In this document: positions 44,347 to 61,735 of the stretch, in pieces | Layout of the letters: the number at the start of each line of letters is the position of its first letter | How positions within the stretch are numbered: position 1 is the stretch's first letter | From: Terriglobia bacterium | GTDB lineage: Bacteria > Acidobacteriota > Terriglobia > 20CM-2-55-15 | DNA length: 64,000 bases | Assembly (NCBI GenBank): GCA_963664115.2 | Contig: CAXWPJ010000009.1 | Span: forward strand, 224,001-288,000 | Reading direction: 5' to 3' | Translations under genes and position numbers: made by a program | Notes under the pieces: model-generated | Told to the model about the DNA's origin: nothing | The model's input: the letters and a program-made list of their open reading frames with translations, nothing else | Database searches by the model: none

Positions 44347-45764
44347 ACGGCGCCACTCTTTCTGACGTCGCCCTGCTGGTCCCGGAACTGATTCTGGTCG
44401 GGATGTCCGTCGCATTGATCGTTCTCGCACGACGTATAAAGAACACGCCGATTGCGGCAACAGGGACAGTCCTTGCTGCATTGGGCGCTGGCATGTACTC
44501 CTTCTGGGCGGTGTCAGAAGGCACTCAAGTCGGCTTTGGCGGCATGCTCATTCTGGACGGCTACTCCCAATTCTTCAAGGTGCTCATTGCCGCCACTCTG
44601 GCTCTGGTCGCGCTTCTGTCGGTGAGAAGCCACGATCTGGAAGAGGTGCCCCGCGGCGAGTACCATGCCCTGCTCCTGTTGGCTTCGACGGGGATGATGC
44701 TTGCAGTTTCATCACTGGATCTGCTGACCCTCTACTTGGGCCTAGAGCTTATGACGCTGTGCTCCTACATCCTGGTCGGGATCGCGGTGGACAGACCGAC
44801 GTCAAACGAGGCCGCGATCAAGTATTTCCTTTTGGGGTCATTCGCCTCAGCCCTGCTTCTCTACGGGATCGCCCTGACCTACGGCCTCACCGGCGCTACC
44901 AACTATCAGGCCGTTGCCTCGGTAATTACGGGTCAGGGGCTCACGGAGAACCCGCTTCTGCTAGTGGCCATCGGACTGGTAGCGGCCGGGCTCGCATTCA
45001 AGATTGCGGTGGTGCCGTTTCACGCCTGGGCGCCGGACGCTTACCAGGGTGCAGGTGCACCTGTCGCGGGCTTCCTGGCGGCCGGTTCCAAGGCCGTCGG
45101 CCTGGCCGCTCTGGGAAGGGTTTCCCTGACCGCGTTCGGCGAGGAAACCTACGTCTTGTCCCTGGTTCTTGCGGGACTCGCAGCCCTTTCGATTGTCGTC
45201 GGCAGCATCGTGGCCCTGGCCCAGACCGACATGAAACGTTTGCTGGCCTATTCTGCAATCGCGCACGCGGGTTACGCACTGATGGGCCTCATGGCCGGTA
45301 CGAGGGAGGGGATTTCTGCAACCATGACCTACGCCTTCTTCTACGTCTTTATGACGCTCGGAACATTCGGCGTGGTCATCGCTCTGGGCGAGCGTGGTCG
45401 AACTCTGGATGGATACAAGGGCCTGGCTCGGCAGCGACCCGGAACAGCCGCCCTCATGTTACTTTTTCTCTTGTCTCTGACCGGCATCCCTCCAACGGGG
45501 GGCTTCGTCGCCAAGTTTGTCGTTATCCTGAGCGCTGTGCGCGCAGGCTACGTGGGACTGGCTGTACTTGCGGTGGCCTGCAGCGTAATTTCAGCATTCG
45601 TGTACATGCGGGTAGCCGTCTTCATGTACATGAGAGAGCCCGAGGAGCCGGCGCCTTCGAGCTTCCCGGTGGCGGTGTCCGCCGCTCTCGCCGTGGCAGC
45701 GCTGGTCACTTTAATTGGTGGGATCTCCCCGGGCATTTTGACGGTCTGGGCGGTGTCTCCGTGA
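44343..45764 (+). CDS. nuoN: NADH-quinone oxidoreductase subunit N
   Basis: EAAIKYFLLG, FKIAVVPFHAWAPDAYQGA, GIPPTGGFVAK. Confidence 0.95.
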   Translation: MNGATLSDVALLVPELILVGMSVALIVLARRIKNTPIAATGTVLAALGAGMYSFWAVSEGTQVGFGGMLILDGYSQFFKVLIAATLALVALLSVRSHDLEEVPRGEYHALLLLASTGMMLAVSSLDLLTLYLGLELMTLCSYILVGIAVDRPTSNEAAIKYFLLGSFASALLLYGIALTYGLTGATNYQAVASVITGQGLTENPLLLVAIGLVAAGLAFKIAVVPFHAWAPDAYQGAGAPVAGFLAAGSKAVGLAALGRVSLTAFGEETYVLSLVLAGLAALSIVVGSIVALAQTDMKRLLAYSAIAHAGYALMGLMAGTREGISATMTYAFFYVFMTLGTFGVVIALGERGRTLDGYKGLARQRPGTAALMLLFLLSLTGIPPTGGFVAKFVVILSAVRAGYVGLAVLAVACSVISAFVYMRVAVFMYMREPEEPAPSSFPVAVSAALAVAALVTLIGGISPGILTVWAVSP

Positions 45765-45792
45765 TGTCCACGATAATGTACACTAATGACTT

Positions 45793-46146
45793 ATGAACGC
45801 ATACATCGGGATAGCGGTCAGTTTCGTTCTGGCTGCAGGGATCACGGGCTTGATGGTCATCCTGGCCTCCACGCTGGGAAAGAAGAATTCCACGCCTGTA
45901 AAGTTGTCGCCGTTCGAATGTGGGGTGGATCCGTTTTCGCTCCCTATCGGCAAGTTGGCAATCAAGTTTTACCTGACTGCTATTCTGTTCATCCCCTTCG
46001 ATGTCGAGCTGGTGTTCCTCTATCCCTGGGCCGTGCTTTACCGCCAGCTGGGGACCTTGGGACTGGTTGAAATGGGACTCTTTCTGGGCATCCTGATGGC
46101 AGGTTATGTCTACGCCTGGGACAATGGCGCTCTTGACTGGCAATGA
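45793..46146 (+). CDS. nuoA: NADH-quinone oxidoreductase subunit A
   Basis: PFECGVDP, FDVELVFLYPWA, GALDW. Confidence 0.95.
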   Translation: MNAYIGIAVSFVLAAGITGLMVILASTLGKKNSTPVKLSPFECGVDPFSLPIGKLAIKFYLTAILFIPFDVELVFLYPWAVLYRQLGTLGLVEMGLFLGILMAGYVYAWDNGALDWQ

Positions 46147-46185
46147 CTGGAAATGACTGGCAATGACTGGAAATGACTGGCAATG
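46134..46185 (+). repeat. Tandem 10-bp repeat TGACTGG(C/A)AA, five copies
   Basis: tgactggcaa tgactggaaa tgactggcaa tgactggaaa tgactggcaa, beginning in the last codons of nuoA. Confidence 0.95.
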
Positions 46186-46219
46186 CAGGACAATGATCCC
46201 GCAATTCTGTAAATAAATC

Positions 46220-46723
46220 ATGTTCAACGACACATCGTTTCTAACGAGCCGGCTCGACGACGCGGTTGGCTGGGCACGAAAGTATTCAATCTTCCAGTAT
46301 CCGTTCGTGACTGCGTGCTGCGGGATGGAGTACATGGCGACGGCCTGCTCTCATTACGACGTGGACCGTTTCGGAGCGGGCTTCCCAAGATTTTCTCCTC
46401 GCCAGGCCGACGTACTTTTCGTCGTCGGCACGATCAGTCACAAGATGGCGCCTGTCCTCCTACGCATCCATGAGCAGATGGCGGATCCCAAGTGGGTGGT
46501 CGCTTTCGGCGTGTGCGTGTGCACGGGCGGTTTTTATGACAACTACGCCACAGTGATGGGCATCGATACCATCATGCCGGTGGATGTTTATATACCTGGA
46601 TGCCCACCGCGGCCGGAGATGGTCCTCGACGGCCTGATGAAGCTGCAGGACAAGATCCAGGACCATGGAGTAAGCGGCAAGCGCGTCGCGCCTGAACCTC
46701 GTCCGGACCTCTTCGAAGCATGA
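46220..46723 (+). CDS. nuoB: NADH-quinone oxidoreductase subunit B
   Basis: TACCGME, SPRQAD, PGCPPRPE. Confidence 0.96.
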   Translation: MFNDTSFLTSRLDDAVGWARKYSIFQYPFVTACCGMEYMATACSHYDVDRFGAGFPRFSPRQADVLFVVGTISHKMAPVLLRIHEQMADPKWVVAFGVCVCTGGFYDNYATVMGIDTIMPVDVYIPGCPPRPEMVLDGLMKLQDKIQDHGVSGKRVAPEPRPDLFEA

Positions 46724-47301
46724 ATACCACATCTTTGATCGAATCCCTCACGGACCGCTTTCCCGCTGCGGTGACCTCGTCCCATGCCTACCGGGGTGAC
46801 GCAACACTTATTGTTCGTCCGAAGAGCCTCGTCGACGTGGCGCGGTTTCTCAAGGAGGACCCGGCCTTAAAAATGAATTACCTCATGGACCTGACTGCCG
46901 TCGACTACTCCGCATTCGGGAAACACCCCACGCCGGCCTTTTTCACTTCTTCGGGAGTGACGGTGAAGCCGTCTTCCGAGATTCCGGATGAAGAACCGTG
47001 GCCCGGCCCTCCGGACGAAGGGCGGTTTGCGGTCGTGTACCACTTCTTCTCGACCACCCACAAACATCGGCTACGACTGGTTGTCCCGGTAGAGGAGAGT
47101 GTGGCTCAGGTGGATTCGCTGACCGCGTTGTGGCCGGGCGCCGACTGGCTTGAACGCGAGGTCTGGGACATGTTCGGGATCGGTTTTACGGGACATCCCG
47201 ACTTGAAGCGGATTCTCATGTACGAAGGGTTCGAGGGTCACCCGCTACGGAAGGACTATCCCGTCAAAAAGCGTCAGCCGCTGATCGGACCGACCAACTA
47301 A
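46720..47301 (+). CDS. nuoC: NADH-quinone oxidoreductase subunit C
   Basis: DLTAVDY, WLEREVWDMFGI, GHPLRKDYP. Confidence 0.95.
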   Translation: MNTTSLIESLTDRFPAAVTSSHAYRGDATLIVRPKSLVDVARFLKEDPALKMNYLMDLTAVDYSAFGKHPTPAFFTSSGVTVKPSSEIPDEEPWPGPPDEGRFAVVYHFFSTTHKHRLRLVVPVEESVAQVDSLTALWPGADWLEREVWDMFGIGFTGHPDLKRILMYEGFEGHPLRKDYPVKKRQPLIGPTN

Positions 47302-47310
47302 CAGCGTTCT

Positions 47311-48693
47311 ATGGAAAAGAACAGCCCATCGCCGGAGACGGCGCCGACACCCCGGGGCGACCCGGCAGAACTCGAAACGCGGGACATGCTCATCAACGTG
47401 GGTCCCGCTCATCCCGCCATGCACGGGATCATCCGGATCGTAGCTAAGCTCGACGGGGAACAGATCGAGGATGCCGAAGTAGAGATCGGCTACCTTCACC
47501 GTGGTTTTGAAAAGATGGCTGAAACGGTCGACTATAACGGCGTCATGCCTTACACCGACCGGCTCAACTATGTCTCGCCGCTCATCAACAATATGGGCTA
47601 TTGCATGGCTGTGGAAAAGCTCCTTGGGATCTCGGTCCCGGAGCGCTGCCACTACGTTCGGGTCATTCTCTCCGAGATCTCGAGGCTCTCGGATCACCTG
47701 ACCTGCGTCGGTGCAACCGCCATGGAGTTGGGGGCCTTCAGCGTGTTTCTGTACATGATCAAGGCCCGGGAGTACCTGTGGGAGTTGGTGGAGAAGGTCA
47801 CCGGAGCCCGGTTGACAGTCAGCTATTGCCGCGTGGGCGGTGTCAAAGCGGACCTTCCCGATGACTTCGCCGAACCTTGCCGCAAGGCCTTTGAGGAAAC
47901 CCGCAAGGTCCTCGCTGAGGCGGATGGGCTCCTCACCCGCAATCGCATTTTCACCGACCGTATGACAGGGACAGGAGTGCTCTCCGTCGACGACGCCATA
48001 GGCTACGGAATCACCGGCCCCTTCCTTCGTGCGAGCGGCGCGGACTACGACGTGCGCAAAGACTGCCCCTACGCCGTCTACGACCGGATACCATTCGACG
48101 TGCCAGTGGGTAGCAAAGGCGACAACATGGATCGCTATCTGGTACGCATGGAGGAAATGCAACAGTCCATGCGGATCGTGGAAACAGCGCTTGCCGACAT
48201 ACCGCCCGGCCCCGTCATGGTCAATCCTGAGACGGGGCGCCCCATCCCGGCCGCCGATATGGTAGACCTGGCCAAAGTGGGCGACATCAGAGCCATTTCA
48301 GGCAGGCCCGCCGTCGTCGATCCGACACTCGAGGGGGCCAGTCGGGCCGAATATCCGTCTATTGCTGCGGATGAGAAACGCGTTTTTCTACCTGCTAAAG
48401 AGGATACTTACGGCAACATCGAAGGGCTCATGAACCACTTCAAGCTGGTCATGTTGGGCCACGGCCTGCGCCCCCCAAAAGGGGAAGTCTATTTCCCGGT
48501 GGAAGGCGCCAACGGAGAACTCGGGTTCTACGTAGTGAGCGACGGAGAGGGACGTCCCTACCGGGTCCGGGTCCGCCCGCCCTGCTTCGCTATCATGTCG
48601 GCCCTGCCCCATCTCCTTGTCGGGGGCATGATGGCCGATATGGTCCCCACCTTTGGGTCCGTGAACATGATAGGCGGGGAACTCGACCGGTGA
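47311..48693 (+). CDS. nuoD: NADH-quinone oxidoreductase subunit D
   Basis: GPAHPAMHG, GYLHRGFEK, DRLNY, GELDR; no NiFe CxxC motifs. Confidence 0.96.
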   Translation: MEKNSPSPETAPTPRGDPAELETRDMLINVGPAHPAMHGIIRIVAKLDGEQIEDAEVEIGYLHRGFEKMAETVDYNGVMPYTDRLNYVSPLINNMGYCMAVEKLLGISVPERCHYVRVILSEISRLSDHLTCVGATAMELGAFSVFLYMIKAREYLWELVEKVTGARLTVSYCRVGGVKADLPDDFAEPCRKAFEETRKVLAEADGLLTRNRIFTDRMTGTGVLSVDDAIGYGITGPFLRASGADYDVRKDCPYAVYDRIPFDVPVGSKGDNMDRYLVRMEEMQQSMRIVETALADIPPGPVMVNPETGRPIPAADMVDLAKVGDIRAISGRPAVVDPTLEGASRAEYPSIAADEKRVFLPAKEDTYGNIEGLMNHFKLVMLGHGLRPPKGEVYFPVEGANGELGFYVVSDGEGRPYRVRVRPPCFAIMSALPHLLVGGMMADMVPTFGSVNMIGGELDR

Positions 48694-50486
48694 CGCTCAA
48701 GGAAATGGAAGACGCGGCGGAGGAAATCCTCCGACGCTATGAGTACCCGAAGGCGGCGATGCTGCCTGTCCTGTGGCTCGTACAGCAGAACCAGGGCTAC
48801 ATCTCACCTGAGGCAGAAGCTTGGGTGGGCCACCTTCTTGGAGTGTCTATCGCCCACGTGCGCGAGGTAGTCTCCTTTTACAATATGTTCCATACCCAGC
48901 CCGTCGGACGGCGGGAACTTCGGGTCTGCACGAGTCTGCCATGCCGCCTCCGCGGAGGGCACGATGTGTTGGAACGCATCAAGGACGGATTAAAGATCAG
49001 CCCGGGTGAGACCACGCCCGGCCAGGAGGTGACGCTCACCGAGGTCGAATGCTTGTGTGCTTGCGAGATGGCGCCCATGGCCCAGCTCGACGAACGCTTT
49101 GTCGGCCCTCTTGACGGTGGGGCCGTAGCCACCCTCATCGAGGACGCTTTGAGCGAACCCGGGAGCGGGGAGTCGACCCCGGAGCCCGACCCCTACATTT
49201 GCACGGATGGGCCGGTTCTCTCCACGCGCTTCAACGATCCGGAGGGGACCTGGTTCGAAACTTACGTCGCCGATGACGGATACGCCGCCTCCCGGCGAGT
49301 GCTCACCTCGATGACGCCGAGGGAGGTGATCGACGAGGTCGCCAAGGCCAAGCTCCGCGGTCTCGGCGGGGCGGGTTTTCCGGCCAGCCGAAAGTGGTCC
49401 TTCATACCCAAGGATTCGACCGAGCCCAAGTACCTCGTAGTCAACGCAGACGAGGGCGAACCCGGGACTTTCAAGGACCGTTACATTCTGGAAAGGGACC
49501 CGCACGCCCTGATCGAGGGCATGATCATCGCAGCCTATGCGATCGGCAGTCATAAGGCCTACGTCTACATTCGGGGCGAGTATTTCAGGTCCGCCAAACG
49601 TTTACAACGCGCCCTGGACGAGGCCTATAACACGAATTGGCTGGGCAAGAACATTCAGGGGACAGGCTTTGACCTGGACGTGGTCATCCACCGGGGCGCC
49701 GGCGCCTACATTTGTGGAGAAGAGACTGCGCTCCTGACGTCGCTCGAGGGCGGCAAAGGCTTTCCCAAGATCAAACCCCCTTTTCCGGCTATTTCGGGCC
49801 TCTTCAAATGCCCCACGATCGTCAACAATGTGGAAACCCTGGCCTGTGTCCCTTTTATCCTGCGCAACGGAGCCGAGCGCTTTGCCGAAATAGGTTCCGA
49901 GACCCAGGGTGGAACACGCCTCTTCTGTGTGAGCGGGCACGTGGTCCGGCCCGGCGTTTACGAGACGTCGGTCAGCATCACCCTGCGGGAACTGATCGAG
50001 CAGCATGCCGGGGGCGTACGCGATGGCAAGAAGCTTAAGGCTGTCATTCCCGGGGGGATCTCAGCCAAGATTCTCAGGGCTGACGAGATCGATGTGGGCA
50101 TGGATTTCGACTCGCTCAGGGGGGCCGGAACCATGGCTGGATCCGGGGGCGTAATCGTCATGGATGAAACCACCTCCATGGTCGAGGCGCTCGAGTCCGC
50201 GGCCCGGTTCTTCGCTGACGAGTCCTGCGGACAGTGTTCCCCCTGCCGGGAGGGGACAGGCTGGGTGCATCGCATCGTCGACCGCATCACCGAAGGGCAG
50301 GGACGTGTCGAGGATCTGGACGACCTTCTCGCTATTGCCGGCGATATGGAAGGCAACACTATCTGCGTTTTCGCGGACGCGGCGGCCTGGCCAGTCCAGT
50401 CCTACATCATGAAATTCAGGGACGAGTTCGAGGATTACATCCGTACCGGCCAGCGGGTCGGGGGAAAGGAAGCTGCGCATGCCTAA
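48690..50486 (+). CDS. nuoEF: Fused NuoE-NuoF (NADH-binding flavoprotein with N1a and N3 clusters)
   Basis: NuoE CTSLPC...ECLCAC, then NuoF GGAGFP, NADEGEPGTFKDR, GAGAYICGEETAL, ESCGQCSPCREG in one ORF. Confidence 0.93.
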   Translation: MTLKEMEDAAEEILRRYEYPKAAMLPVLWLVQQNQGYISPEAEAWVGHLLGVSIAHVREVVSFYNMFHTQPVGRRELRVCTSLPCRLRGGHDVLERIKDGLKISPGETTPGQEVTLTEVECLCACEMAPMAQLDERFVGPLDGGAVATLIEDALSEPGSGESTPEPDPYICTDGPVLSTRFNDPEGTWFETYVADDGYAASRRVLTSMTPREVIDEVAKAKLRGLGGAGFPASRKWSFIPKDSTEPKYLVVNADEGEPGTFKDRYILERDPHALIEGMIIAAYAIGSHKAYVYIRGEYFRSAKRLQRALDEAYNTNWLGKNIQGTGFDLDVVIHRGAGAYICGEETALLTSLEGGKGFPKIKPPFPAISGLFKCPTIVNNVETLACVPFILRNGAERFAEIGSETQGGTRLFCVSGHVVRPGVYETSVSITLRELIEQHAGGVRDGKKLKAVIPGGISAKILRADEIDVGMDFDSLRGAGTMAGSGGVIVMDETTSMVEALESAARFFADESCGQCSPCREGTGWVHRIVDRITEGQGRVEDLDDLLAIAGDMEGNTICVFADAAAWPVQSYIMKFRDEFEDYIRTGQRVGGKEAAHA

Positions 50487-52131
50487 GCTAAGCATTGACG
50501 GCCGCGAGGTGAGCGTCGATCAGGGAACCACGGTCATCCAGGCGGCGGAGACGCTGGGGATTTTCGTTCCGCGCTACTGCTACCACCCCGGGCTCTCTAT
50601 CGCGGGCAACTGCCGCATCTGCCTCGTGGAAGTGGAGAAATCCCCCAAGCTCCAGATCGCATGCAACACTCCTGCGACCGAGGGGATGGTTGTTCACACA
50701 AAGAGCGACACCGCCCAGGACGGACGTCGCTCGGTACTGGAGTTCCTCCTGGCCAATCACCCGCTCGACTGCCCGGTTTGCGACCAGTCCGGTGAGTGCG
50801 ACTTACAGAATTTCTACCTGGACTTCGGCCTCTACAATCCGCGCTTCAGGGAGCGTAAAGTCAAGAAAAAGAAAGCTGTGACGCTGGGCCCGTATGTGAT
50901 GCTGGACCAGGAGCGCTGCATCCTCTGTTCCCGGTGCGTGCGCTTCACGGACGAGATCACCGAGACCGGAGAGTTCGGCATCTTCAATCGCGGAGACCGC
51001 TCCGAGCTGGGGCTGTACCCTGGCAAGGAACTCGACAATCGGTATTCGACCAACGTGGTGGACATCTGCCCCGTCGGTGCGCTGACCGAGCGGAAGTTCC
51101 GTTTCAAGACGCGGGTCTGGTACCTCTCCAGCGCCCCGACCGTCTGCAACGGTTGCAGTCAGGGCTGCAACATGGATTTGCATTACGTTCTGGACCGCCC
51201 TCACCTGAACGACGGCGCGCGGCTGCTGCGTGTCAAGCCACGATACAACCCGGATGTAAACCAATGGTGGTTGTGCGATGAAGGGCGCTATGGCCTCGAT
51301 TGGATCGACCAGGCTCGGCTCCGGAAGGTACGCGGGCCGTCGGGGGACGGGGCCGAGGGCGCAGATGCTCAGAATGCCACAAATACAACGGATACGACAT
51401 GGGACACGGCCCTTCGAACAATCTCAGCAGCTCTCTCGGTCCTGCCCAAGGGACGGATCGGGGTAATTGCCTCAGCCCGACTCACGATCGAAGAGCTGTT
51501 TCTGATCCGGGAGATTTTCCAGCGCGGCCTCGGCGCCCAGGTCAGTGCCTCTGTTCCAGAAATGCCAGGCTCTTCCGACGATTTCCTCATTAAGGCGGAT
51601 AAGAACCCCAACACCATGGGGGCGGAGCTGCTGGGACTATCCGGTCCGAACGCGCCGGACGCAGGACAGATCCTGGACGAGGCACTCGCCGGGAACCTTG
51701 ACGCCCTGTGGGTTATGGGGCACGACCTTGTCGCACTCTTCGGTGAAGAGAAGGCCCGACAACTCCGAGACAAGGTGGGTCTCTTCGTCTTCTCCGGAAC
51801 GAACGAAAACCGAACGGTTCCCTTGGCCCATTGGGCCTTGCCGAGCGCGGCCTATGTGGAAAAAGACGGGACCTTCGTCAACTGCCACGGACGCGTCCAG
51901 CGAATCGGCCAGGCGTTTCCTCCGCTTGAGGACTCCCGTGAGGACTGGCGCATTCTCCTGGAATTGGCCCGGCTGCTAATGCTCGAACTCGACTGGCACG
52001 AACCCCAGGACATCTTCGCGGCAGTGGCCTCCACCGAGGCGCCTTTCGCGGGAATGAGCTACGAGACGATAGGAGATCAGGGGGCTGGGGTCCGGCCAAC
52101 CGAGCCCGCTGAAGAGGTATCCGTCACGTGA
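50479..52131 (+). CDS. nuoG: NADH-quinone oxidoreductase subunit G (short form)
   Basis: PRYCYH, GNCRICLVE, NHPLDCPVCDQSGECDLQ, CILCSRC, CPVGAL, CNGCSQGC (N7). Confidence 0.93.
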   Translation: MPKLSIDGREVSVDQGTTVIQAAETLGIFVPRYCYHPGLSIAGNCRICLVEVEKSPKLQIACNTPATEGMVVHTKSDTAQDGRRSVLEFLLANHPLDCPVCDQSGECDLQNFYLDFGLYNPRFRERKVKKKKAVTLGPYVMLDQERCILCSRCVRFTDEITETGEFGIFNRGDRSELGLYPGKELDNRYSTNVVDICPVGALTERKFRFKTRVWYLSSAPTVCNGCSQGCNMDLHYVLDRPHLNDGARLLRVKPRYNPDVNQWWLCDEGRYGLDWIDQARLRKVRGPSGDGAEGADAQNATNTTDTTWDTALRTISAALSVLPKGRIGVIASARLTIEELFLIREIFQRGLGAQVSASVPEMPGSSDDFLIKADKNPNTMGAELLGLSGPNAPDAGQILDEALAGNLDALWVMGHDLVALFGEEKARQLRDKVGLFVFSGTNENRTVPLAHWALPSAAYVEKDGTFVNCHGRVQRIGQAFPPLEDSREDWRILLELARLLMLELDWHEPQDIFAAVASTEAPFAGMSYETIGDQGAGVRPTEPAEEVSVT

Positions 52132-53219
52132 TAGAAGTTCTGATCATCAAAATTACACTGGCGGGAATCGTTTTCTTCACGGTCTTGAACTTCGCAGGGT
52201 TTCATACCTGGGCGGAGCGGAAACAGTCGGCTCTGATCCAGGATAGAATCGGGGCCAACCGTGCGGATATTCTCGGCTTTAGGATGCTGGGACTCTTTCA
52301 CGGCATCGCCGACGCGATCAAGTTGTTCACCAAGGAGGACATCGTCCCGACGGGAGCAGACAGGACACTCCATACGCTGGCCCCATTCTTTTCGGTGTTC
52401 TTCGCCCTCGTCGCGTTCGCAGTGATTCCCTTCGGGGACACATTGATTCTCGGGGACAGGGTCATTGAACTCCAGGTCGCAACGTTTGACGCCGCGCTCC
52501 TCTACGTTTTCGCCATGCTCTCCCTCGGAGTCTACGGCGTGATCCTCGCGGGCTTTGCCTCGCCCAACAACTACGCAATCATGGGAAGCCTCAGGGCCAC
52601 CGCACAGATGATCTCCTATGAAATCGCACTGGGAGTCTCTGTTGTTGGAGTGATCATGGTTTACGGGACCATGGATCTGTCGGAACTCGTGCGGGCTCAG
52701 GGGCAGATGATCGGCGGCTGGATTCCTTTCTGGGGCATCGTCGCCCAGCCCGTGGCCTTTGTCGTATTTGTGACCGCGGCACTGGCCGAAACCAAGCGGA
52801 TGCCCTTTGATATGCCGGAAGGGGAATCAGAGATCATCGGGTACTTTGTGGAGTACAGCGGCATGAAGTTCGGGATGTTCTTCCTCACGGACTTCCTAGA
52901 GACCATCATGGTGGCATGCTTGTCGACCACACTCTTTTTCGGCGGGTGGCAGGTACCCTTCCTGTTGCCGGACGGGTTCCACTTCCCCTGGGGAGCGGAG
53001 ATACTCATGCCCAATTGGCTCTACGCCCTGCTGGGTGTGGTGAGCTTTTCGACCAAGGTCGTGGTTTTCTGTTGGATCTTCATGCAGCTTCGCTGGACCC
53101 TGCCACGATTCCGTTATGATCAGCTCATGAAACTGGGCTGGCGAGGGCTGTTCCCGATCGCGGTGGCCAATATTGTGGTCACGGCCGGCGTGCTGATGTT
53201 TTTCGGAGAGGGGTTCTAA
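52128..53219 (+). CDS. nuoH: NADH-quinone oxidoreductase subunit H
   Basis: ERKQSALIQDRIG, AETKRMPFDMPEGESE, LPRFRYDQLM. Confidence 0.96.
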   Translation: MIEVLIIKITLAGIVFFTVLNFAGFHTWAERKQSALIQDRIGANRADILGFRMLGLFHGIADAIKLFTKEDIVPTGADRTLHTLAPFFSVFFALVAFAVIPFGDTLILGDRVIELQVATFDAALLYVFAMLSLGVYGVILAGFASPNNYAIMGSLRATAQMISYEIALGVSVVGVIMVYGTMDLSELVRAQGQMIGGWIPFWGIVAQPVAFVVFVTAALAETKRMPFDMPEGESEIIGYFVEYSGMKFGMFFLTDFLETIMVACLSTTLFFGGWQVPFLLPDGFHFPWGAEILMPNWLYALLGVVSFSTKVVVFCWIFMQLRWTLPRFRYDQLMKLGWRGLFPIAVANIVVTAGVLMFFGEGF

Positions 53220-53878
53220 TGGCCGTAAGAGTTGTCTCAAGGCCCGAGTTGACTTTCTGGGAGAAGCTCTACATCCCGCAGATCGTCTCCGGCTTCAGGA
53301 TCACGTCCAGACACTTCTTCCGAAACCTCTTTCTCCATACGGCCCACAAACTGGGCCTGTTCAAACACCTTGCTGCCTCCGCCACCATACAGTATCCCGA
53401 AGAACTCCGGCCGCTGATGTCACGCTACCGAAGCCGCCACCGGCTGACCGTGCGCGACGACAACACACCACGCTGCGTCGGATGTATGCTGTGTGAAACG
53501 GTCTGCCCGGCCCACTGCATTACGATCGTGGCCGGGGAACACCCCGACCCCAATGTCGAGAAATATCCGATCCGCTTCGACATCGATCTGGGGGTGTGCG
53601 TCTATTGTGGTTACTGCGTCGAGGTATGCCCTGAGGATGCGATCCGGATGGACACGGGAATTCTTGATCTGGCGGCTTACTCGAGGGAGGCCATGCAGTT
53701 GGACATCCACGAACTCATGGACCCAAAGCTGCACAAACCCATCCCCCAGTGCGACCTCGATTTCCCGCACAAGTGCGAGGTGAGCGGGGGCGAGATGAAG
53801 GGAAGCTGGGAGGGATTGGTGGAACATCGGCCAGCGGACTCACCACAGGTCCCGGCAGAGTCGGCAAAGCAGGGATAA
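53219..53878 (+). CDS. nuoI: NADH-quinone oxidoreductase subunit I (complete copy)
   Basis: QYPEE, CVGCMLCETVCP, CVYCGYCVEVCPEDAI. Confidence 0.95.
   Translation: MAVRVVSRPELTFWEKLYIPQIVSGFRITSRHFFRNLFLHTAHKLGLFKHLAASATIQYPEELRPLMSRYRSRHRLTVRDDNTPRCVGCMLCETVCPAHCITIVAGEHPDPNVEKYPIRFDIDLGVCVYCGYCVEVCPEDAIRMDTGILDLAAYSREAMQLDIHELMDPKLHKPIPQCDLDFPHKCEVSGGEMKGSWEGLVEHRPADSPQVPAESAKQG
53306..53811 (+). repeat. Left copy of a ~506-bp direct repeat (nuoI internal/3' part)
   Basis: Near-identical to 60037..60542; about six substitutions seen by eye. Confidence 0.95.
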
Positions 53879-54116
53879 AGGCCACCCCAGTATTCGTTTG
53901 ACACCCCGGACTTTTCGGCCGTTCGATCCCGGACCTCGCTCGGCCAACGCTGGCGGCTTCAGTTTACGCCGCGCGCTCGTATTCCCCCGTTATGGTTCCG
54001 GAAATTCCCAGACATCTACCTCATCTTCATGGCGACGGACTTCTTATTTCGCTTATCCGCCTATCTCTCCTACCTCGCAGAGATTGCTTATTTCGCCTAT
54101 ACTCACAATTTCGCGT

Positions 54117-56594
54117 ATGAAATCACTACATTTTAAATTGCACATCTTTTCTCTCTGCGCTCTGGCAATAGCTCAACCCTTGCTCGAAGTGATTTCCAGG
54201 AATGCCGAACTGTTGGTAGCTCGCCAAGCCGGCGTAGTTGACTTGGCAATTCTTGTCTTTGCGCTTTCGATTCTCGTTCCGTTGCTATTGGTGTTGCCCG
54301 GTCAAATAGCTCGAGTTTACGGAACATTACTCAGTGATAGATTTTTCCTTGGCACAATCGTTTTTCTTGTCAGTTTGCTGGCCCTTTTAAGCTTGAAAGA
54401 AATTACTGATGGTTCAAGTGCATATTTGGTTTTGATGGCCTTGTTGCTCGGGGTTCTCTTCGCGTCTATGTATACCCGATTCGAAGCCCTGCCTATGATT
54501 TGTGATTTCCTTGCTCCGGCAATTCTATTAGTACCGATACTGTTTGTGTTCAATTCAAACATCTCTAGAGTTGTCGCAAATTCTGATGGGACACAGTTTT
54601 CTTTTTCGGGTGCTCGAAACAATATACCTGTTGTCATGGTTGTCTTTGATGAACTGCCATTGTTGTCTCTGCTTGATGAAACTGCCAATATTGACAGCGT
54701 CAGATACCCAAATTTCGCTACCCTGGCGTCTGAAAGCCACTGGTTTCGCAATGCGAGATCCTTGAGCGGATCGACCACAATTGCAATTCCTGCGATTGTA
54801 AGTGGTGAGACCAAGCCGGACGCACTGCCTATCGCCGTAGACTATCCGAGGAATTTATTCACGCTGCTAAATGCAAGTCACCAACTTAATGTAACGGAAC
54901 AGGTCACCTCGCTGTGTCCTCAGTCTGTTTGTGACAGTACCGCTATCGGGACTCCACAGGCTTTGCAACAAAGGCTAGAAGGGTTTTTTACCGATCTGGC
55001 CGTGGTCTATCTTCATGTTCTATTACCTGAGGATTTGACGGCTAGTCTTCCGACCATATCCCAATCATGGGGAAACTTCGTCAACAGGGGCGTCAGCGAA
55101 ACAGGCCCGTCGACTGAGACCGACAATTCTGAATCTCGAGATGAAAAATACGCGAGTTTTCTGAATGGGATAGTGGCGTCTGAGAAACCGAGCCTAAATT
55201 TTCACCACACTCTCTTACCGCATGTTGCCTGGGAATATCTGCCTTCGGGCAAATTCTATTCTATTTATGGGAGTGATGTGCCTGGACTGAATTTTGTCAA
55301 TGAAATATGGGGAGACGATCCCGCTCTTGTTGAACAGGGCTATCAACGACATTTGCTGCAAGTTGGCTTTGTGGACAAATTGTTAGGAGATCTGATAGCG
55401 AAATTAAAGTCTGAGAATCTCTACGATGAGTCTCTGATCGTAATTGTTTCAGACCATGGCGTTAATTTCTGGCCAGGAGAATCCCGTCGCGATCTATTTG
55501 ATCCGAGATTTACCCTGGACACATTGGGCATCACTTTGCTGATCAAACAGCCCCGGCAATCGGTCGGGATTGTGCATGACGGCGAGGTGTCGTCGCTAGA
55601 TATCCTGCCGACTATAGCGAATAGTTTGGGAATTCAGACTGATGATCAATTTCAAGGGCGCGATCTTTTCGGTTCAGATGCTCAGTCTACAACCAGCGCT
55701 GATAATCCCTATTTGAATTACGCGAGTTTGCAGCGCAAATTGAAGCTTTTCGGTTCAGGAGAGCTTTCTACTCTTTACGGTCTGGGCGATTTTTCTCAGT
55801 TGTTGAACTTGAGAAAAAGTGATTTCGATTTGGAAGTATCAAACAGCTTAACTTATACAATCGATCAACAAAGCAATTTGTCTGATGTCAGCTTGAGCGA
55901 TTTGATGATACCCGCGCGCGTAACTGGCGAACTTATGGGTGCTTTGATTGACGAAACCGATATGGATCTCGCCGTAATGTTGAATCGCAAACTAATCGCC
56001 GTAAGCAAACCTTACTTCAGTGGCTCTGAGTTCAGATTTTCAATAATGCTGCCTGAAAATGAGATTGAAAACGGGTTTAACGAATTTGAGTTATTTAGAA
56101 TTCATGCTGAGGCCAATGAAACTTTCCGGCTGGAGCAAGTTCGAAACCTGAGAGGGGATTTCTATCGATATACCACCGAAGGTAACTTGGAGAGTCTTTC
56201 TTCTGTCGACAATGAAAGTAGCGAAATTGCGTTGATACCAGGACGGGTCAGAGGTTTCGTAGACAGCATTAGCTTAAAGCAAGGATTTCTGGAAATAATC
56301 GGTTGGGCTGCAAATATTCAAAACGATGAACCCGCAGAATTTTTGATTATCGATATTAACGGCCAGTTGGTCTATTTGGGCACGCCAGTACTTCAACGCA
56401 GCGATGTCGCTACGGCATTCGATGCGCCTTCAATTGAAGAGTCCGGCTATCTGCTCGATGTTCGGGCGACGAGGTTTGCTGACTTAGAACCATTGAGCGT
56501 GAAGGTAATCGGAGTCAGTGGAAATGAAGCAAGTTTATTAGAGTCAAATTTCGATATTAGCGAAAGAATCGAAGAGCTGGCTAGGAGCCAATGA
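54117..56594 (+). CDS. Membrane-anchored alkaline-phosphatase-superfamily (sulfatase-like) hydrolase/transferase, NoeB-like
   Basis: About 5 N-terminal TM; VVFDELP, GSTTIAIPAIVSG (Thr/Ser rather than CxPxR), LLPH, IVSDHG; C-terminal GFVD..GWA..RSDVA..SGY module; likely start MKSLHF at 54117. Confidence 0.8.
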   Translation: MKSLHFKLHIFSLCALAIAQPLLEVISRNAELLVARQAGVVDLAILVFALSILVPLLLVLPGQIARVYGTLLSDRFFLGTIVFLVSLLALLSLKEITDGSSAYLVLMALLLGVLFASMYTRFEALPMICDFLAPAILLVPILFVFNSNISRVVANSDGTQFSFSGARNNIPVVMVVFDELPLLSLLDETANIDSVRYPNFATLASESHWFRNARSLSGSTTIAIPAIVSGETKPDALPIAVDYPRNLFTLLNASHQLNVTEQVTSLCPQSVCDSTAIGTPQALQQRLEGFFTDLAVVYLHVLLPEDLTASLPTISQSWGNFVNRGVSETGPSTETDNSESRDEKYASFLNGIVASEKPSLNFHHTLLPHVAWEYLPSGKFYSIYGSDVPGLNFVNEIWGDDPALVEQGYQRHLLQVGFVDKLLGDLIAKLKSENLYDESLIVIVSDHGVNFWPGESRRDLFDPRFTLDTLGITLLIKQPRQSVGIVHDGEVSSLDILPTIANSLGIQTDDQFQGRDLFGSDAQSTTSADNPYLNYASLQRKLKLFGSGELSTLYGLGDFSQLLNLRKSDFDLEVSNSLTYTIDQQSNLSDVSLSDLMIPARVTGELMGALIDETDMDLAVMLNRKLIAVSKPYFSGSEFRFSIMLPENEIENGFNEFELFRIHAEANETFRLEQVRNLRGDFYRYTTEGNLESLSSVDNESSEIALIPGRVRGFVDSISLKQGFLEIIGWAANIQNDEPAEFLIIDINGQLVYLGTPVLQRSDVATAFDAPSIEESGYLLDVRATRFADLEPLSVKVIGVSGNEASLLESNFDISERIEELARSQ

Positions 56595-56933
56595 GTTCGG
56601 CTCAACGAAGGTTTTAAAAATAGCTACTTAGAAAGTTTTGCATTCGAATGCTGGACGCAGGAATAGACGCCTCCGTCGAATGTGAATGTGGTCGCCCCTC
56701 CCCGGTGATCACAAGTAGGGACTTCCCGACAGCGCAGTCCCAATCTTCATGACCGCGAACATCGAAGAGTTTTAACTTATGGATTCCCTAAGAATGGACT
56801 ATGCTTTATTCCAGATCGGGCGGATTTGGAAGGAGTGTATCGTGAAGCGCTTTGGGTCGGGCATAGAAGTGGCCCCCAAAATTAGGACAGCGTTATAAGG
56901 TGGACTCTGCATAGATGAGAGGACCTAACGACG

Positions 56934-57215
56934 ATGGCGAAACGACGGAATTTTTCAGCAGATTTCAAAGCGAAGGTAGCGCTGGCCGCGATGCGTGGCG
57001 ACGGCACGATGGCCGAATTGGCGGCGCGGTACAAGATCCATCCGAACATGATCACGAAGTGGAAGCGTGATGCGCTTGATAGCGTTAAAGAAGCATTCCA
57101 GCGAGGCCGGGATCCATCGGCCCGGAACCACGAGGACGAGATCAAAGACCTGCAGGCCAAGATCGGTGAACTGGTCGTGGAACGGGATTTTTTAGCACGA
57201 GCCTTCAATCGATGA
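56934..57215 (+). CDS. IS3 transposase OrfA (HTH)
   Basis: RRNFSADFKAKVALAA HTH_Tnp_1 pattern; GGATTTTTTAG near the 3' end. Confidence 0.92.
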   Translation: MAKRRNFSADFKAKVALAAMRGDGTMAELAARYKIHPNMITKWKRDALDSVKEAFQRGRDPSARNHEDEIKDLQAKIGELVVERDFLARAFNR

Positions 57216-58060
57216 GCTTGGGTCGAAGGCGCGAGGTGGTCGAACCGGGCCATGAGCAGCTCAGTGTGGTCCGGCAATGCGACTTGATCGGGTTGAGCCG
57301 TTCGAGTTGGTACTATCGGCCACGGGGTGAGAGTGATCGCAATCTGGACCTGATGCGCGTGATCGACGAGGCGTATCTGAAGATGCCCTGGTATGGGTCC
57401 AGGCAGATGACGCGTCATCTGAAACGTCTCGGCTACGATGTGGGCCGGAAGCGGGTACGCCGACTAATGCGGTTGATGGGGCTGCGCTCGGTGGCACCGC
57501 AGACGTCCCGGAGAAACCCGGCTCATCCGGTGTACCCATATCTACTCAACGACATTGCCGTGGAGCGGGCGAATCAAGCGTGGTCTACCGACGTGACGTA
57601 TATCCCGATGGCGCACGGATTCTTATATCTGGTCGCGATCATGGACTGGCATACGCGGAAGGTGTTGTCCTGGCGGCTGTCCAACACCCAGGACACGACG
57701 TTTTGCCTTGAAGCCCTCGACGAGGCGATCGAGGAATACGGCAGTCCGGAAATCTTCAACACCGATCAGGGCAGCCAGTTCACCAGCAAGGCCTGGACGG
57801 ACCGACTTAAAGAACGAGGTATCCGGATCTCCATGGACGGCAAGGGGCAATGGATCGACAACGTTTTCATCGAACGCCTATGGCGCTCGATCAAATACGA
57901 ATGCGTTTATCTAAACGCCTTCAGTGACTTCAAAGATGCCCGGCACCACATAGGTGTCTGGATGAACTATTACAATAACGACCGCCCGCATTCCAAACTC
58001 GACGATCTCACGCCGAGCGAAGCCTACGCGGGAACACGGCCACTGACCTCGGCAGCATAA
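57212..58060 (+). CDS. IS3 transposase OrfB (DDE integrase core)
   Basis: WSTDVTY, NTDQGSQF, DNVFIERLWRSIKYE. Confidence 0.94.
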   Translation: MSLGRRREVVEPGHEQLSVVRQCDLIGLSRSSWYYRPRGESDRNLDLMRVIDEAYLKMPWYGSRQMTRHLKRLGYDVGRKRVRRLMRLMGLRSVAPQTSRRNPAHPVYPYLLNDIAVERANQAWSTDVTYIPMAHGFLYLVAIMDWHTRKVLSWRLSNTQDTTFCLEALDEAIEEYGSPEIFNTDQGSQFTSKAWTDRLKERGIRISMDGKGQWIDNVFIERLWRSIKYECVYLNAFSDFKDARHHIGVWMNYYNNDRPHSKLDDLTPSEAYAGTRPLTSAA

Positions 58061-58326
58061 ACATGAACCGCGGAATCCACCTTAAATTGGCTGCCAAGCT
58101 GTCCAACGTATGGGGTCCACCTCTCATCGCAACCCTGACAGGCATCGCCTTTCAATTGTAAGTTGGGAGCAGCCCGCACACGCCTATCTTGATCCGGGAG
58201 CCGGCAGTCTCCTTCTCCAGGTGCTGATGGGAGGCTTGGCCGGGGCGGCCGTTGTGGTCAAGGTGTATTGGAACAGCCTGATGGCGAGATTTGGACGCGG
58301 TGGAGACACCCGGAGAGCCGATCCGG

Positions 58327-59750
58327 GTGAGTCAGACACCTAGATTGGAACCCACACGAATAGAAGGCTCCTTCCGAGATCCCGCTGGACAGATCTTCCA
58401 AAAAGACGGCCACATTTACCGGACCATTAACGCCGTTGCCGTGGATGACTTTGTCTTCGTTCAGAACACCAATTTCTACCCGAAAGCCGTCAGCGAAAAG
58501 CGTCTCATCTCTGCTGAACAAGTTCCGCCCGAAATCCTGAACAGCCGCCAGCCAGAGGCCTCCCATGTGATCGAGCACCCACGCCTGCCTTTCGTGTCCT
58601 ATCCCTATGAGTGGACGTTCCAAATGCTCAAAACTGCCGCACTGTTCCACCTCGATTTCCATCTTGATGCCCTGAGAGACGGCATAACGCTTATCGATGC
58701 CTCTGCATACAACGTGCAATTCATAGGTGCCTCGCCAATCTTTATCGACACGCTGTCCTTACGGAAATATAAACCGGGCTCCCTCTGGGCTGGTTACAAA
58801 CAGTTCTGCGACCAGTTTCTCAATCCCCTCCTCCTGAGGTCCTACGTTGGACTGCACCACAACGCCTGGTATCGGGGAAACCAGGAAGGCATCAACGCCG
58901 GGGAGATCCGGAAATTATTGCCCGCCCGGCGTAAGCTGTCTCGAAGGGTGCTCACACACGTCACGCTCCAGGATTCGCTTCAGAAAACCACGCGTAAAGG
59001 TTCCGGCCCGAATCTGGGAGCCTTGCAGGAGGTGGAACTCCCACTGGCAACATTCAGAAAGACGCTCACTGACCTGAAGGATTGGATTAAGGGACTCGAA
59101 CCGAAAGAGGCGGGACGCACCGTATGGAGCGACTACGCAAACTTCAACAGTTATGCGCCACAAGAAGAAGCCCTCAAGCACGAATTCGTAAACGACTTCG
59201 TCCGACGCAGGAAACTCGTACAGGTCTGGGACCTTGGCTGCAATAGTGGCGAATATGCAGCAGTCGCTCTCAATGCCGGGGCAGACTATGTCGTCGGGTT
59301 CGATGCGGATCACGGCGCGTTGGATTTGGCATTCCGCCGTTCCCAAGAGGAACGGTTACGCTTTCTTCCTCTCTTTCTCGACATCGCGAATCCTCCGCCC
59401 TCTCAGGGGTGGGCGCAACAGGAACGGTACGGACTCAGGGAACGCACCAGCGCGGACGGCGTGATCGCCCTGGCGCTGATCCATCACATATCGATCGGAG
59501 GCACAACGTACCTCTTGGCGATGCGCTTGCCTGGTTGGTCGGCCTGGGACCCAGAGGCGTAATCGAATTCGTGCCCAAAGAGGATCCCATGGTCCAGGAG
59601 TTACTTCGGTTCCGGGAGGATATCTTTCCGAATTACACACTCGAAAACTTTCTTAGAAAGCTTCAAACACTTGCATCCGTCGAACGGACGGAACCGAGTT
59701 CATCGACCGGTCGTTTGCTGGTGGAGTATTCGCGCAAGCCACAAGCGTAA
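58327..59750 (+). pseudogene. NoeA-like protein (kinase-like N-terminal domain + class I SAM methyltransferase), frameshifted near 59500
   Basis: GSFRDPAG, FVSYPYEW, DASAYNVQF, IFID; VWDLGCNSGEY; after HHISIG the expected continuation NVPL…IEFVPKEDPMV is in another frame (59409..59750); start 58291 or 58327. Confidence 0.8.
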
Positions 59751-60036
59751 ACGGCAAACGAGATGGAACCGCGCTGTAAATCGTCCATCGCTACGCCGAC
59801 GGCTTCTCAAAAGACCTGGAGCCTGCAAAACATAACCCACAAATCATCGTTTATCACTGGCAGCCTGCACGTGTACGTCGTCAGAGTAATTCGGACAGAA
59901 GGGCTGTCTCTCCAAGAGACGGCTTTTAAGTTATACCACTTCAGTCCTCAAGTTTGCGATCCGACGCTCGGCCAGCGTTCGCTGCTTGATTCTCTCCCGA
60001 CGGGAGAGGATTTCCTCCTGATGGCCAAAGAACACT

Positions 60037-60573
60037 TCCAGACACTTCTTCCGAAACCTCTTTCTCCATACGGCCCACAAGCTGGGCCTGTTCAAATACC
60101 TTGCTGCCTCCGCCACCATCCAGTATCCCGAAGAACTCCGGCCGCTGATGTCACGCTACCGAAGCCGCCACCGGCTGACCGTGCGCGACGACAACACACC
60201 ACGCTGCGTCGGATGTATGCTGTGTGAAACGGTCTGCCCGGCCCACTGCATTACGATCGTGGCCGGGGAACACCCCGACCCCAATGTCGAGAAATATCCG
60301 ATCCGCTTCGACATCGATCTGGGGATGTGCGTCTATTGTGGTTACTGCGTCGAGGTATGCCCTGAGGATGCGATCCGGATGGACACGGGAATTCTCGATC
60401 TGGCGGCTTACTCGAGGGAGGCCATGCAGTTGGACATCCACGAACTCATGGACCCGAAGCTGCACAAACCCATCCCCCAGTGCGACCTCGATTTCCCGCA
60501 CAAGTGCGAGGTGAGCGGGGGCGAGATGAAGGGAAGCTGGGAAGAGGTCGACAAATCACAGACAGCGAACTGA
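60037..60573 (+). pseudogene. nuoI: 5'-truncated second copy of nuoI (right direct repeat 60037..60542) with a different C-terminus
   Basis: Both 4Fe-4S motifs intact; lacks the first ~29 codons; in-frame stop at 60019 upstream; ends EVDKSQTAN*. Confidence 0.9.
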
Positions 60574-60775
60574 CCACCCCCGCTCAGCAGACTCGCCAAA
60601 GCTGAGATAAAGCTCACCCGTCATATCCACTGTGATTCTGTTTATCTGTGCGGTTGTTGACTCGTGCCAAGAACTCAATCTTCTGACAGGCGAATGGACT
60701 CACTCACGCAGAAATCTGGCAATAGGCGGCGTGTTGGTGCAGTATGCAGGTATTACGAACTTGGAGGATAGATCA

Positions 60776-61735
60776 GTGATTCGTCTAATTCGAGTATCCC
60801 GGCCAGCGGTTCGTCACGCAGTGTGGGTCGCGCTTTGCGCTTCGGCCCTCTTCGCCACGTTTTCATCTTTCGGAAATGCCAGCCAGATTCAATCCCTATC
60901 AGACGGTGTTTACTCCACCCCGCAGGCGGAGCGGGCGCAGCTGATTTACCAGGCCCAGTGCGCGATGTGTCATGGCAATGCGCTCCAAGGCGCCAGCGAG
61001 GGATCGCCGCTGACGGGGGAGGGTTTCCTCTCGAACTGGAGTGGACAACCGTTATCGGATCTCGTCGACAAGATCGAGAACACGATGCCCTTCGGCGCGC
61101 CCGGAAGCCTTAGCCGGCAGCAAGCAACCGACCTCACGGCTTACATTCTCCAGGCCGGTGAATTCCCGGCCGGTCAAGCGGATCTCGCCGAAGATGCACT
61201 GACCCGAATCGCGCTTCCCACGGTTAGCCCATCTCCGGGAAACGACACGCGTTTGTCTGGCACGTCTCTCCCTCCGCCCGAAGGAAACCTCGCCGAGTTG
61301 ATGCGGGGCATCGCGTTCCCCAATTCAAATATCATATTTAACCTTCAGGTCAAGAATCCCGATGACGAGCCGGCTAAGGCGATGCCGATACCTTTTGACT
61401 ACGTCGAATGGGGGACCACTATTTATCCCGGGTGGCTGCAGATCGATCAGGCCGCGGTTGCTCTCACCGAAACGGCACCGCTCCTCTTAACACCAGGACG
61501 ACAGTGTCAGAACGGCAGGCCGGTTCCGGTGGATCGCGCTGATTGGCAGCAGTACGTGGCGGACTTGGTGGAAGTCGGGCAGGTCCTTTATCAGGCGTCG
61601 AAAGCGAGAGACTATCAAGCGCTGGTGGACTTGAGCGAGGACCTCAACGATGCGTGCGGGAACTGCCACGCGGTTTATCGCGATATGGGCGGCAGCGAGG
61701 GCAGTGGAGCAAACCGCTGCATCGTTGAACCATGA
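60776..61735 (+). CDS. Exported di-heme c-type cytochrome
   Basis: GGAGGA RBS and GTG at 60776; signal peptide; CAMCH with distal Met (TMP); CGNCH near the C-terminus. Confidence 0.85.
   Translation: MIRLIRVSRPAVRHAVWVALCASALFATFSSFGNASQIQSLSDGVYSTPQAERAQLIYQAQCAMCHGNALQGASEGSPLTGEGFLSNWSGQPLSDLVDKIENTMPFGAPGSLSRQQATDLTAYILQAGEFPAGQADLAEDALTRIALPTVSPSPGNDTRLSGTSLPPPEGNLAELMRGIAFPNSNIIFNLQVKNPDDEPAKAMPIPFDYVEWGTTIYPGWLQIDQAAVALTETAPLLLTPGRQCQNGRPVPVDRADWQQYVADLVEVGQVLYQASKARDYQALVDLSEDLNDACGNCHAVYRDMGGSEGSGANRCIVEP

Follow-up and report, generated by a model that had tools for sequence, protein, structure and literature searches.

A probable insertion-duplication in nuoI with an ISCR-type footprint in a Terriglobia genome

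Genomic islands that carry an integrase leave an intact target gene and a displaced 3' copy of it on either side of the foreign DNA. Campbell-type insertion-duplication produces a long direct repeat of the target, with hybrid copies, and is reversible in principle. Here we analyse an islet of 6.7 kb that lies between two copies of the 3' part of the respiratory gene nuoI in a Terriglobia bacterium (assembly GCA_963664115.2). The window, i.e. the whole stretch of DNA that was analysed, comprises 64,000 nucleotides of contig CAXWPJ010000009.1 (positions 224,001 to 288,000), which is contig C9 of the genome termed G000 below (completeness 97%). Coordinates are those of the window, and features lie on the forward (+) strand unless stated otherwise. 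The islet is probably a real insertion-duplication with a footprint of the insertion sequence common region (ISCR) type, and probably a neutral one.

The closest described systems are ISCR1-linked class 1 integrons. In the accessible text of the reports (PMC7707992, PMC13023784, PMC3575428) these show the order 3' conserved segment (3'-CS), ISCR1, variable region and partial 3'-CS, and in the Toleman model two aberrant rolling-circle rounds yield a circle that enters the 3'-CS by homologous recombination. The islet shares this arrangement with a full anchor, an ISCR end whose ter side would face the anchor, an oriIS abutting non-cassette cargo, and a truncated anchor. It also shares the proposed rescue of a circle by homologous recombination, as well as the CCTATAC core in oriIS that the consulted parts of the literature give for ISCR1 (PMC13023784) and ISCR27 (PMC8894482). 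In contrast to ISCR1-linked integrons, the anchor is the chromosomal respiratory gene nuoI and not qacEdelta1-sul1, there is no integron and no transposase, the cargo is unrelated to resistance and mostly broken, and the host belongs to the Acidobacteriota. Although the islet resembles an ISCR1-linked complex integron in the way it works, it does not belong to that class, and it is a remnant and not an intact IS91 element. For IS91 itself, read-through of ter is described as frequent in the part of the report available to us (bioRxiv 10.1101/2025.01.24.634351). As far as the sources on one-ended transposition of IS91, IS801 and IS1294 cover it, the locus resembles these elements in having oriIS 3' of a Y2 HUH transposase in its subfamily, so that ter read-through would mobilise an adjacent gene end. 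It differs in that the subfamily does not follow the CTTG/GTTC rule and only orphan ends are present at nuoI.

Displaced 3' ends are also described for type VI secretion system (T6SS) and rhs arrays, and homology-facilitated illegitimate recombination has been put forward for them (accessible parts of PMC5361080, PMC2884548 and PMC6382021). As in those arrays, to the extent that these sources describe them, a working gene has received a new 3' end, the old 3' end is shifted downstream and one junction shows microhomology. Unlike there, the displaced nuoI piece comprises 170 conserved codons and not the variable tip alone, and the alleles speak rather for a crossover within the repeat; in addition, no ComEC was detected in G000. 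A Campbell-type event agrees with the direct target repeat and with the presence of RecA (E 1.6e-141); it is silent on the origin of the circle, whereas the islet has IS91 and IS3 pieces at both cargo edges. In contrast to integrase-borne islands, the islet shows a 510-bp repeat with allele differences in place of short att sites. The initial annotation had described an islet with no integrase, and indeed no tyrosine or serine recombinase family was detected in the islet open reading frames scanned, but mobile-element sequence is present in the form of oriIS ends and two IS3-type elements.

The nuoI direct repeat and its alleles

The window carries a second complex I operon (38856..53219; MrpD-like subunits, nuoM, N, A, B, C, D, a fused EF, G and H; NCBIfam/Pfam), a further nuoA-N cluster of G000 being located on contig C2. 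The last gene of the operon is an intact nuoI of 219 amino acids (53219..53878; NCBIfam/Pfam and sequence), which ends in a C-terminal extension referred to as tail A. By pairwise comparison it contains the left copy of the direct repeat (53302..53811). The right copy (60033-60542) belongs to a 5'-truncated nuoI that starts from codon 28/29 and ends in the presumed resident tail, tail B (60033..60573, by alignment). Between 53306-53811 and 60037-60542 about six substitutions had been noted, and we find exactly six in 506 positions, with synonymous changes at K44, I57, L149 and P169 and the replacements H50/Y and V126/M. The homology begins four bases earlier (53302/60033), so that the repeat measures 510 bp with 98.6% identity and a spacing of 6,731 bp. 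A seventh difference lies at 53305, where the right copy has the base found in all four congeners compared (G001, G002, G003 and G004). Chance would not be expected to give a match of this length and identity by a wide margin; the other NuoI-like genes of G000 reach only 55% and 32% amino acid identity or less.

The two C-termini (GLVEHRP…KQG and EVDKSQTAN) read as originally described, but this is not a simple divergence, as some 75 further bases are homologous with gaps. Tails A and B are 69% identical over 80 bp, tail B ending early through a TCA/TGA difference, and from their alignment the two appear to be homologous alleles of one hypervariable extension. Tail A is 82% identical to the tail of G004 and 60% to that of G002, and together with about 40 bp downstream it is common to G004 (53812..53916; 89.7% over 58 bp), while tail B is 84% identical to the G002 tail and 62% to the G004 tail. 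A set of 80 metagenomic NuoI homologs shows that tails vary widely 3' of the conserved KGSW motif. As the exchange falls just past KGSW, it is probably neutral; the proposed swap of the NuoI C-terminus concerns a part of the protein that is not conserved. Codons 1-28 are missing from the right copy, which has an in-frame stop a few codons upstream and M67 as its first ATG, and is most likely a pseudogene fragment.

Relatives provide an empty site. In G002 a nuoI with tail B is followed by genes for a cytochrome c, an amidohydrolase, a BON protein and a hydantoinase, as is the case to the right of the islet, where the cytochrome c gene (60632..61735; profile and G002 synteny) comes next after nuoI. 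The operon upstream of nuoI is syntenic in all four congeners. The gene 3' of nuoI encodes cytochrome c in G002, a BON protein in G003 and a hydantoinase in G001, and in G004 it is replaced by insertion sequence (IS) debris. As nuoI closes an accessory operon and is followed by a different gene in each of the four congeners, it is the conserved flank of a variable spot. A respiratory gene had been called an unusual anchor; nuoI is indeed the anchor, but its position at the end of an accessory operon beside a variable spot qualifies this view. Of the checks suggested at the outset, the one on relatives' C-termini yielded the tail B type in G002 and the tail A type in G004, and the one on other cargo showed a variable next gene, with this cargo present at the site in none of the four congeners. 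Shared-derived sites within the operon and nuoI (38856-53878) alternate between G002 and G004, which suggests a mosaic.

Fourteen of 35 family genomes contain the NuoI 3' region, and two of these (G000 and G002) have two copies. No second nuoI copy was seen at the 80 metagenomic loci, a weak negative because few have enough downstream DNA (at least 2 kb in 32, 7 kb in 12). Within these samples a second 3' copy is infrequent. Exact nuoI pattern scans gave no metagenome stretch and one genome locus, and no conspecific DNA was obtained. On contig C1 of G002 (near 1,672,440; L026:8365-8837) an oriIS end is directly joined to the 3' fragment of a foreign nuoI, which begins at about codon 77, is 78-82% identical to the congeners' own nuoI and adjoins an IS21 copy. 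This IS21 copy is 99.5% identical to the IS21 behind nuoI in G004.

Further evidence comes from a NuoI cluster in a protein collection, 15 of whose 19 members are listed. The full-length protein P0012 is identical to the left copy through W197 (H50, H99, V126), and hence to the core of the intact NuoI, but has a B-type tail. Y50 and M126, the residues of the right copy, occur together on the tail-A allele P0021, and also on P0004, which has a B-like tail, and on P0141 of G001. In the simplest reading, the left copy would combine a recipient 5' part with a donor tail and the right copy a donor 5' part with the recipient tail, with a crossover after codon 126. In the intact nuoI, a recipient 5' part is likely combined with a donor 3' end. 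P0012 and P0021 match the pattern expected for hybrids from a single crossover, at two informative amino acid sites only. At residue 202, P0012 and G002 have E, while both versions with insert, P0002 and P0014, have K; as the displaced copies have K, P0012 is unlikely to be an excision product of islet-carrying strains.

In a sister lineage, a NuoI with tail A (P0011) occurs along with a decayed fragment of B type (P0008), both recorded with a longest contig of 1,576,508 bp. P0008 carries its own tail B', with four substitutions in 49 amino acids, and P0010, on a contig of 193 kb, represents the same core with tail B', i.e. an empty-site form. The sister lineage probably has its own version of the islet. 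As each displaced fragment carries the tail of its own lineage, this points to independent events in the two lineages. A search for fragments gave 14 short proteins, mostly on short contigs, of which P0271 and P0279 are notable and neither can be placed.

Boundaries and cargo of the islet

An 18-nt motif occurs twice in tandem within the 238-bp spacer that separates the nuoI stop from the sulfatase start, its copies ending at 54060 and 54104. The first copy closes a sequence resembling the oriIS side of IS91/ISCR-type elements (53948..54060), which is not accompanied by a transposase gene. In G048 this sequence has matches of 65.5% (119 bp) and 96.8% (31 bp) to ends that lie downstream of an IS91-family transposase. 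The second oriIS end comprises 45 bp (54060..54104), terminates in CCTATACTC and forms the left edge of the cargo; it is 95.6% identical to C12:504784-504828 and shares its terminal motif with an IS91-family element on contig C5. G000 contains nine copies of the 18-nt motif and none of its reverse, compared to an expectation of 0.007, a count that includes by construction the islet copies and the few others from which the pattern was built. A Y2 transposase lies upstream on the same strand at 7 of 30 motif loci (5 of 28 when the two motif-defining loci are removed), on the opposite strand at none of the 30, and downstream at one. The islet ends therefore seem to agree with the hallmark of IS91/ISCR elements, a conserved oriIS end downstream of this transposase type. 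Similarity between loci stops at the motif, which is followed by 24 different tetranucleotides in the 30 loci, ACAA and CTAT at the two islet ends. Neither of these follows the CTTG/GTTC target rule, and CTTG is found after one of the 30 ends.

Intact or near-intact Y2 genes are present elsewhere in G000 (11 matches), and an intact cognate one lies near 716,000 on contig C2 of G002. In G004 tail A is followed, at a distance of about 100 bp, by the 5' stub of an IS91 transposase that is oriented like nuoI (76.5% identity over 132 bp, E 4e-22); its 46-amino-acid product has no Pfam match. On contig C5 of G000 (259570-281863) a group of very large genes is enclosed by two 141-bp oriIS ends, which are separated by 22 kb. 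The second of these ends closes a transposase of the IS91 family that has a stop close to its start, and it abuts a tRNA-like sequence. The start codon of the sulfatase gene is overlapped by 11 bp that nearly repeat the oriIS motif (54108-54118), and the left junction may have been guided by them. A scan of 53800-54200 gave no match to a sigma-70 promoter or a terminator; the oriIS of ISCR1 holds outward promoters according to the accessible text of PMC13393415.

At the right boundary, the cargo ends in the right end of an IS3/IS481-type element on the reverse (-) strand (59872..60035, 164 bp), which includes the last 34 codons of its transposase and is 75-86% identical to copies in G000, G001 and G002. 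An intact relative is present in 18 full copies (NCBIfam IS3 179 bits, IS481 214 bits). A hairpin with GAAC at 59989-60033 was considered as an IS91 end and rejected, as it is part of this right end and the GAAC lies within the transposase gene. Alignment of the junction with truncated nuoI (60030..60039) reveals an imperfect 10-bp microhomology with an exact overlap of 3 bp: the IS relatives and nuoI agree at 8 of 10 positions for the ancestral allele or 9 of 10 for the left allele. A match of 8/10 at a fixed site has a probability of about 6e-4, but the register was picked post hoc and 538 such pairings exist between the intact IS relative and nuoI. The junction may represent a later microhomology deletion.

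The islet is a 6.7-kb block in which three of four cargo genes are broken. The intact gene (54117..56594) starts 12 bp past oriIS, has a GC content of 45% and encodes an 825-amino-acid membrane-anchored protein with a sulfatase fold (PF00884) and five hydrophobic segments. The C/SxPxR motif was not found in it, weak PDB matches are to LtaP/LtaS and sulfatases, and the best outside homolog is 63% identical. A role in envelope modification is a plausible guess from these similarities. The cassette had been assigned to surface modification, which may hold for this one gene but not for the other three, which are broken. A region for a small membrane protein (56758..58343), contiguous and intact in a paralog on contig C12, is split by IS3-A, a complete element of 1,260 bp with a 3-bp target duplication CAT (56865..58124; nine genome copies at ≥ 99.3%), which is a late insertion. 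A gene resembling S-adenosylmethionine-dependent methyltransferases follows (58291..59750; PF08242, weak); it has a frameshift near 59502 and is 89% identical to an intact C12 paralog of 485 amino acids. The start of a second sulfatase-fold gene (59763..59871) is cut by the IS3/IS481-type end, while the C12 paralog runs on as an 836-amino-acid gene.

The cargo module is 89% identical to the resident C12 copy and stands at 86-90% from both the C12 and the G002 copies. As it is about equally distant from the two, it probably derives from a third congeneric lineage, as judged from these identities. The resident C12 module (458552-466328; L124) has the order small protein, methyltransferase, sulfatase-fold protein and is syntenic in G002, where the methyltransferase is interrupted twice. 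It adjoins genes that we take, from their sequence motifs, to be related to sulfate activation. At 56685-56693 the window has eight extra bases compared to contigs from runs X15, X16 and X17, reflecting a strain difference or a consensus error.

Routes of formation

We then asked whether the arrangement is a property of the genome or of its assembly, using Logan unitigs of runs X15, X16 and X17 from three studies, together with X18; this evidence is at contig level only. A chimeric assembly of two co-resident strains, joined via IS3-A or the repeat, had been named as the possible refutation and is very improbable. It would account for the unitig depths, which differ to the left and right of IS3-A (about 12-14 versus 20-25 in X15, 7-11 versus 16-19 in X17 and 6-8 versus 4-7 in X16), and no listed unitig piece spans the islet. 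Against it, the CAT duplication matches on the two sides of IS3-A, and the sequences that flank this element form one continuous stretch in the C12 paralog. Moreover, the left NuoI, the right open reading frame and the sulfatase recur on contigs of 2,488,148 and 562,736 bp besides the 1,293,897-bp contig of G000. The strain of the 2.49-Mb contig differs by its own substitutions in NuoG and the sulfatase, adjacency there being inferred. In the protein collection the left NuoI is found on four contigs and the right open reading frame on three plus one with another start. The unitigs of X15, X16 and X17 break exactly at the repeat ends, at both entries and both exits, and one unitig (59880-60066) crosses the IS/nuoI junction in all three runs; no joint over 58000-61200 is reported in the unitig data. 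Overlaps into the repeat are 30-34 bases, equal to the bridging threshold, and do not allow phasing of the copies. Depth in X15 pairs the left entry with tail A (12.9, 13.8) and the right entry with tail B (24.5, 25.4), and gives no sign of a common empty site in that sample, for which a search had been suggested. The simplest guess for the step at IS3-A is a second haplotype without the left block; the depth of the C12 paralog allele tracks the left block, and the co-resident haplotype may lack the second complex I operon and the sulfatase gene, depth being a weak measure. The host likely lives in association with sponges, as parts of the left block recur exactly in run X1, which is labelled as a sponge metagenome; the right block is low or uncovered in that run, which we do not count as absence. 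Runs X5-X14, which have small shares, were left out of account.

We consider it likely that the islet arose as an insertion-duplication in nuoI, by a single RecA crossover with a circle. A circular donor and a single crossover are favoured because G002 has an empty site with tail B and because P0012 joins the left core to a right-type tail. The same two observations back the additive entry by recombination within nuoI that had been suggested, and the donor allele from a related strain is supported as well, the strain being a close one. That the circle was made by a rolling-circle element of the IS91/ISCR type is quite possible, if short of probable; in favour of it are the two oriIS-type ends in the spacer, the Y2 genes found upstream of the motif on the same strand only, the IS91 stub behind tail A in G004, the oriIS-nuoI fusion in G002 and the probable second case in the sister lineage. 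On the model of the published ISCR1 route, an IS91-family element would have resided behind nuoI tail A with its ter side facing the gene, and ter read-through would have taken the nuoI 3' part to a site beside the sulfatase/methyltransferase module. A second round from oriIS would have freed a circle closed at the oriIS-sulfatase joint, and RecA would have joined this circle to the resident nuoI, probably 3' of codon 126. The working gene would thereby gain the donor tail, while the resident tail would be moved 6.7 kb away. Loss of the IS91 body, insertion of IS3-A and decay of the cargo would complete the process. The observed order is nuoI with tail A, oriIS ends, cargo, IS stub, truncated nuoI with tail B, and cytochrome gene. 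RecA-mediated re-excision is plausible, as RecA is present in the genome.

Several observations weigh against this account, above all against the part played by the IS91/ISCR element. The islet contains no HUH (Y2) transposase gene beyond a 12-codon piece similar to IS91-family transposases (53931..53966; 10 of 12 amino acids), a weak match of 25.8 bits that is exceeded by 4 of 2,000 random 226-bp windows of the genome, and the most similar transposase of G000, on C5, has a stop near its start. In 23 of the 30 motif loci the 1.5 kb upstream contain no transposase, so that an orphan end might be unrelated debris. The oriIS subfamily has no target tetranucleotide against which the junctions could be checked; no terIS was found in the islet, none is definable for the subfamily, and spacer hairpins are only weak. 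The 8-9/10 microhomology at the right junction needs no transposase. A duplicated anchor was seen at none of 19 other oriIS regions (12 from relatives, 7 in G000); a long identical repeat in L214, considered as the same layout, was rejected because the repeat is a transposase. The oriIS-nuoI fusion in G002 is equally well explained by a simple insertion into nuoI. The contig of P0012 measures only 4.1 kb, and a misjoin through the repeat could have produced this allele; the co-location of P0011 and P0008 is suggested solely by the shared size of their longest contig, and neither a circle nor an excision form was seen in the contig-level data. Finally, among 62 low-copy direct repeats listed in G000, of which ten others were inspected, only one on contig C6 resembles the nuoI islet, and no oriIS motif within three mismatches was found near it. 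This locus (L216; C6:146691-150806) is a tandem duplication of 311 bp of an aldo-keto-reductase-like gene end with ten differences, in which the next gene is also duplicated, truncated and 79% identical; G001-G003 have the single form.

The same crossover could have involved a circle of different origin, generated in a tail-A strain with the cargo by a microhomology deletion between the interior of the IS3/IS481 element and nuoI codon 28-29. The oriIS ends would then be remains of earlier events, with no part beyond, at most, the arrival of the sulfatase gene at this site. The junction microhomology, the hybrid allele pattern, the frequency of orphan oriIS ends and the C6 duplication without oriIS all agree with this route, yet we regard it as rather unlikely: it requires the cargo to be behind nuoI first, which is the case in none of the four congeners and at the 80 metagenomic loci is reflected by one weak 29% match only, and it leaves the IS91 pieces beside nuoI in G004 and G002 unexplained. 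The junction bears equally on homology-facilitated illegitimate recombination with linear DNA, in which a haplotype with nuoI, tail A and cargo would be held by homology on one side and joined out of register at the microhomology (8-9/10, 3 bp exact) to a haplotype with nuoI, tail B and the cytochrome gene, the left copy being wholly one allele and the right copy wholly the other. The accessible part of PMC5361080 proposes this model for displaced 3' gene ends in Vibrio T6SS arrays, and ComEC, a protein of natural competence, is present in all four congeners. Scoring of the seven differences as ancestral or derived assigns five derived states to the left copy and two to the right, with no clear switch point, as this model would have it. 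We nevertheless consider it unlikely. The free tail-B allele P0012 has the left core and not the right one, and no full-length allele identical to the right copy occurs among the 15 of 19 cluster members listed. Furthermore, neither a profile search nor tblastn with the protein of G002 detected ComEC in G000, at 97% completeness. G000 is also without the neighbourhood in which ComEC lies in G002.

An older insertion or tandem duplication whose nuoI copies were homogenised by gene conversion would make the 98.6% identity uninformative on donor and crossover. The cargo (86-90% to C12 and G002) and tail A (82% to G004) look as if from other species while both cores are conspecific, and popped 506-bp unitigs in X15 and X18 have one left-type base on an otherwise right-type path, as conversion would predict. 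This is improbable, as seven differences persist and are spread over the repeat, the P0012 pattern fits one crossover with no need for conversion, and conversion alone cannot provide a second tail. A single crossover between resident nuoI and a circle remains our preferred reading.

Implications

In the literature searched, which left most subscription journals outside its coverage, we found no report of integration into nuoI. Little seems to be at stake for the physiology of the host, as the exchanged NuoI tail belongs to an extension that is not conserved and only one of the four cargo genes is intact. A more far-reaching idea, which we regard as doubtful, is that the nuoI 3' end and an IS91/ISCR oriIS together form a portable homology arm, the chromosomal counterpart of ISCR1 with the 3'-CS, that would capture varied cargo by rolling-circle read-through and deliver it without an integrase to the same operon end in several sister species. 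The case for the circle-and-rescue route of ISCR elements has come largely from resistance plasmids of clinical origin, in which the integron 3'-CS is the duplicated anchor. A housekeeping-gene anchor, together with an empty-site allele and a likely independent repeat of the event in a sister lineage, would show that this route is general, and would offer a testable origin for some integrase-free islets that are bracketed by duplicated gene ends.

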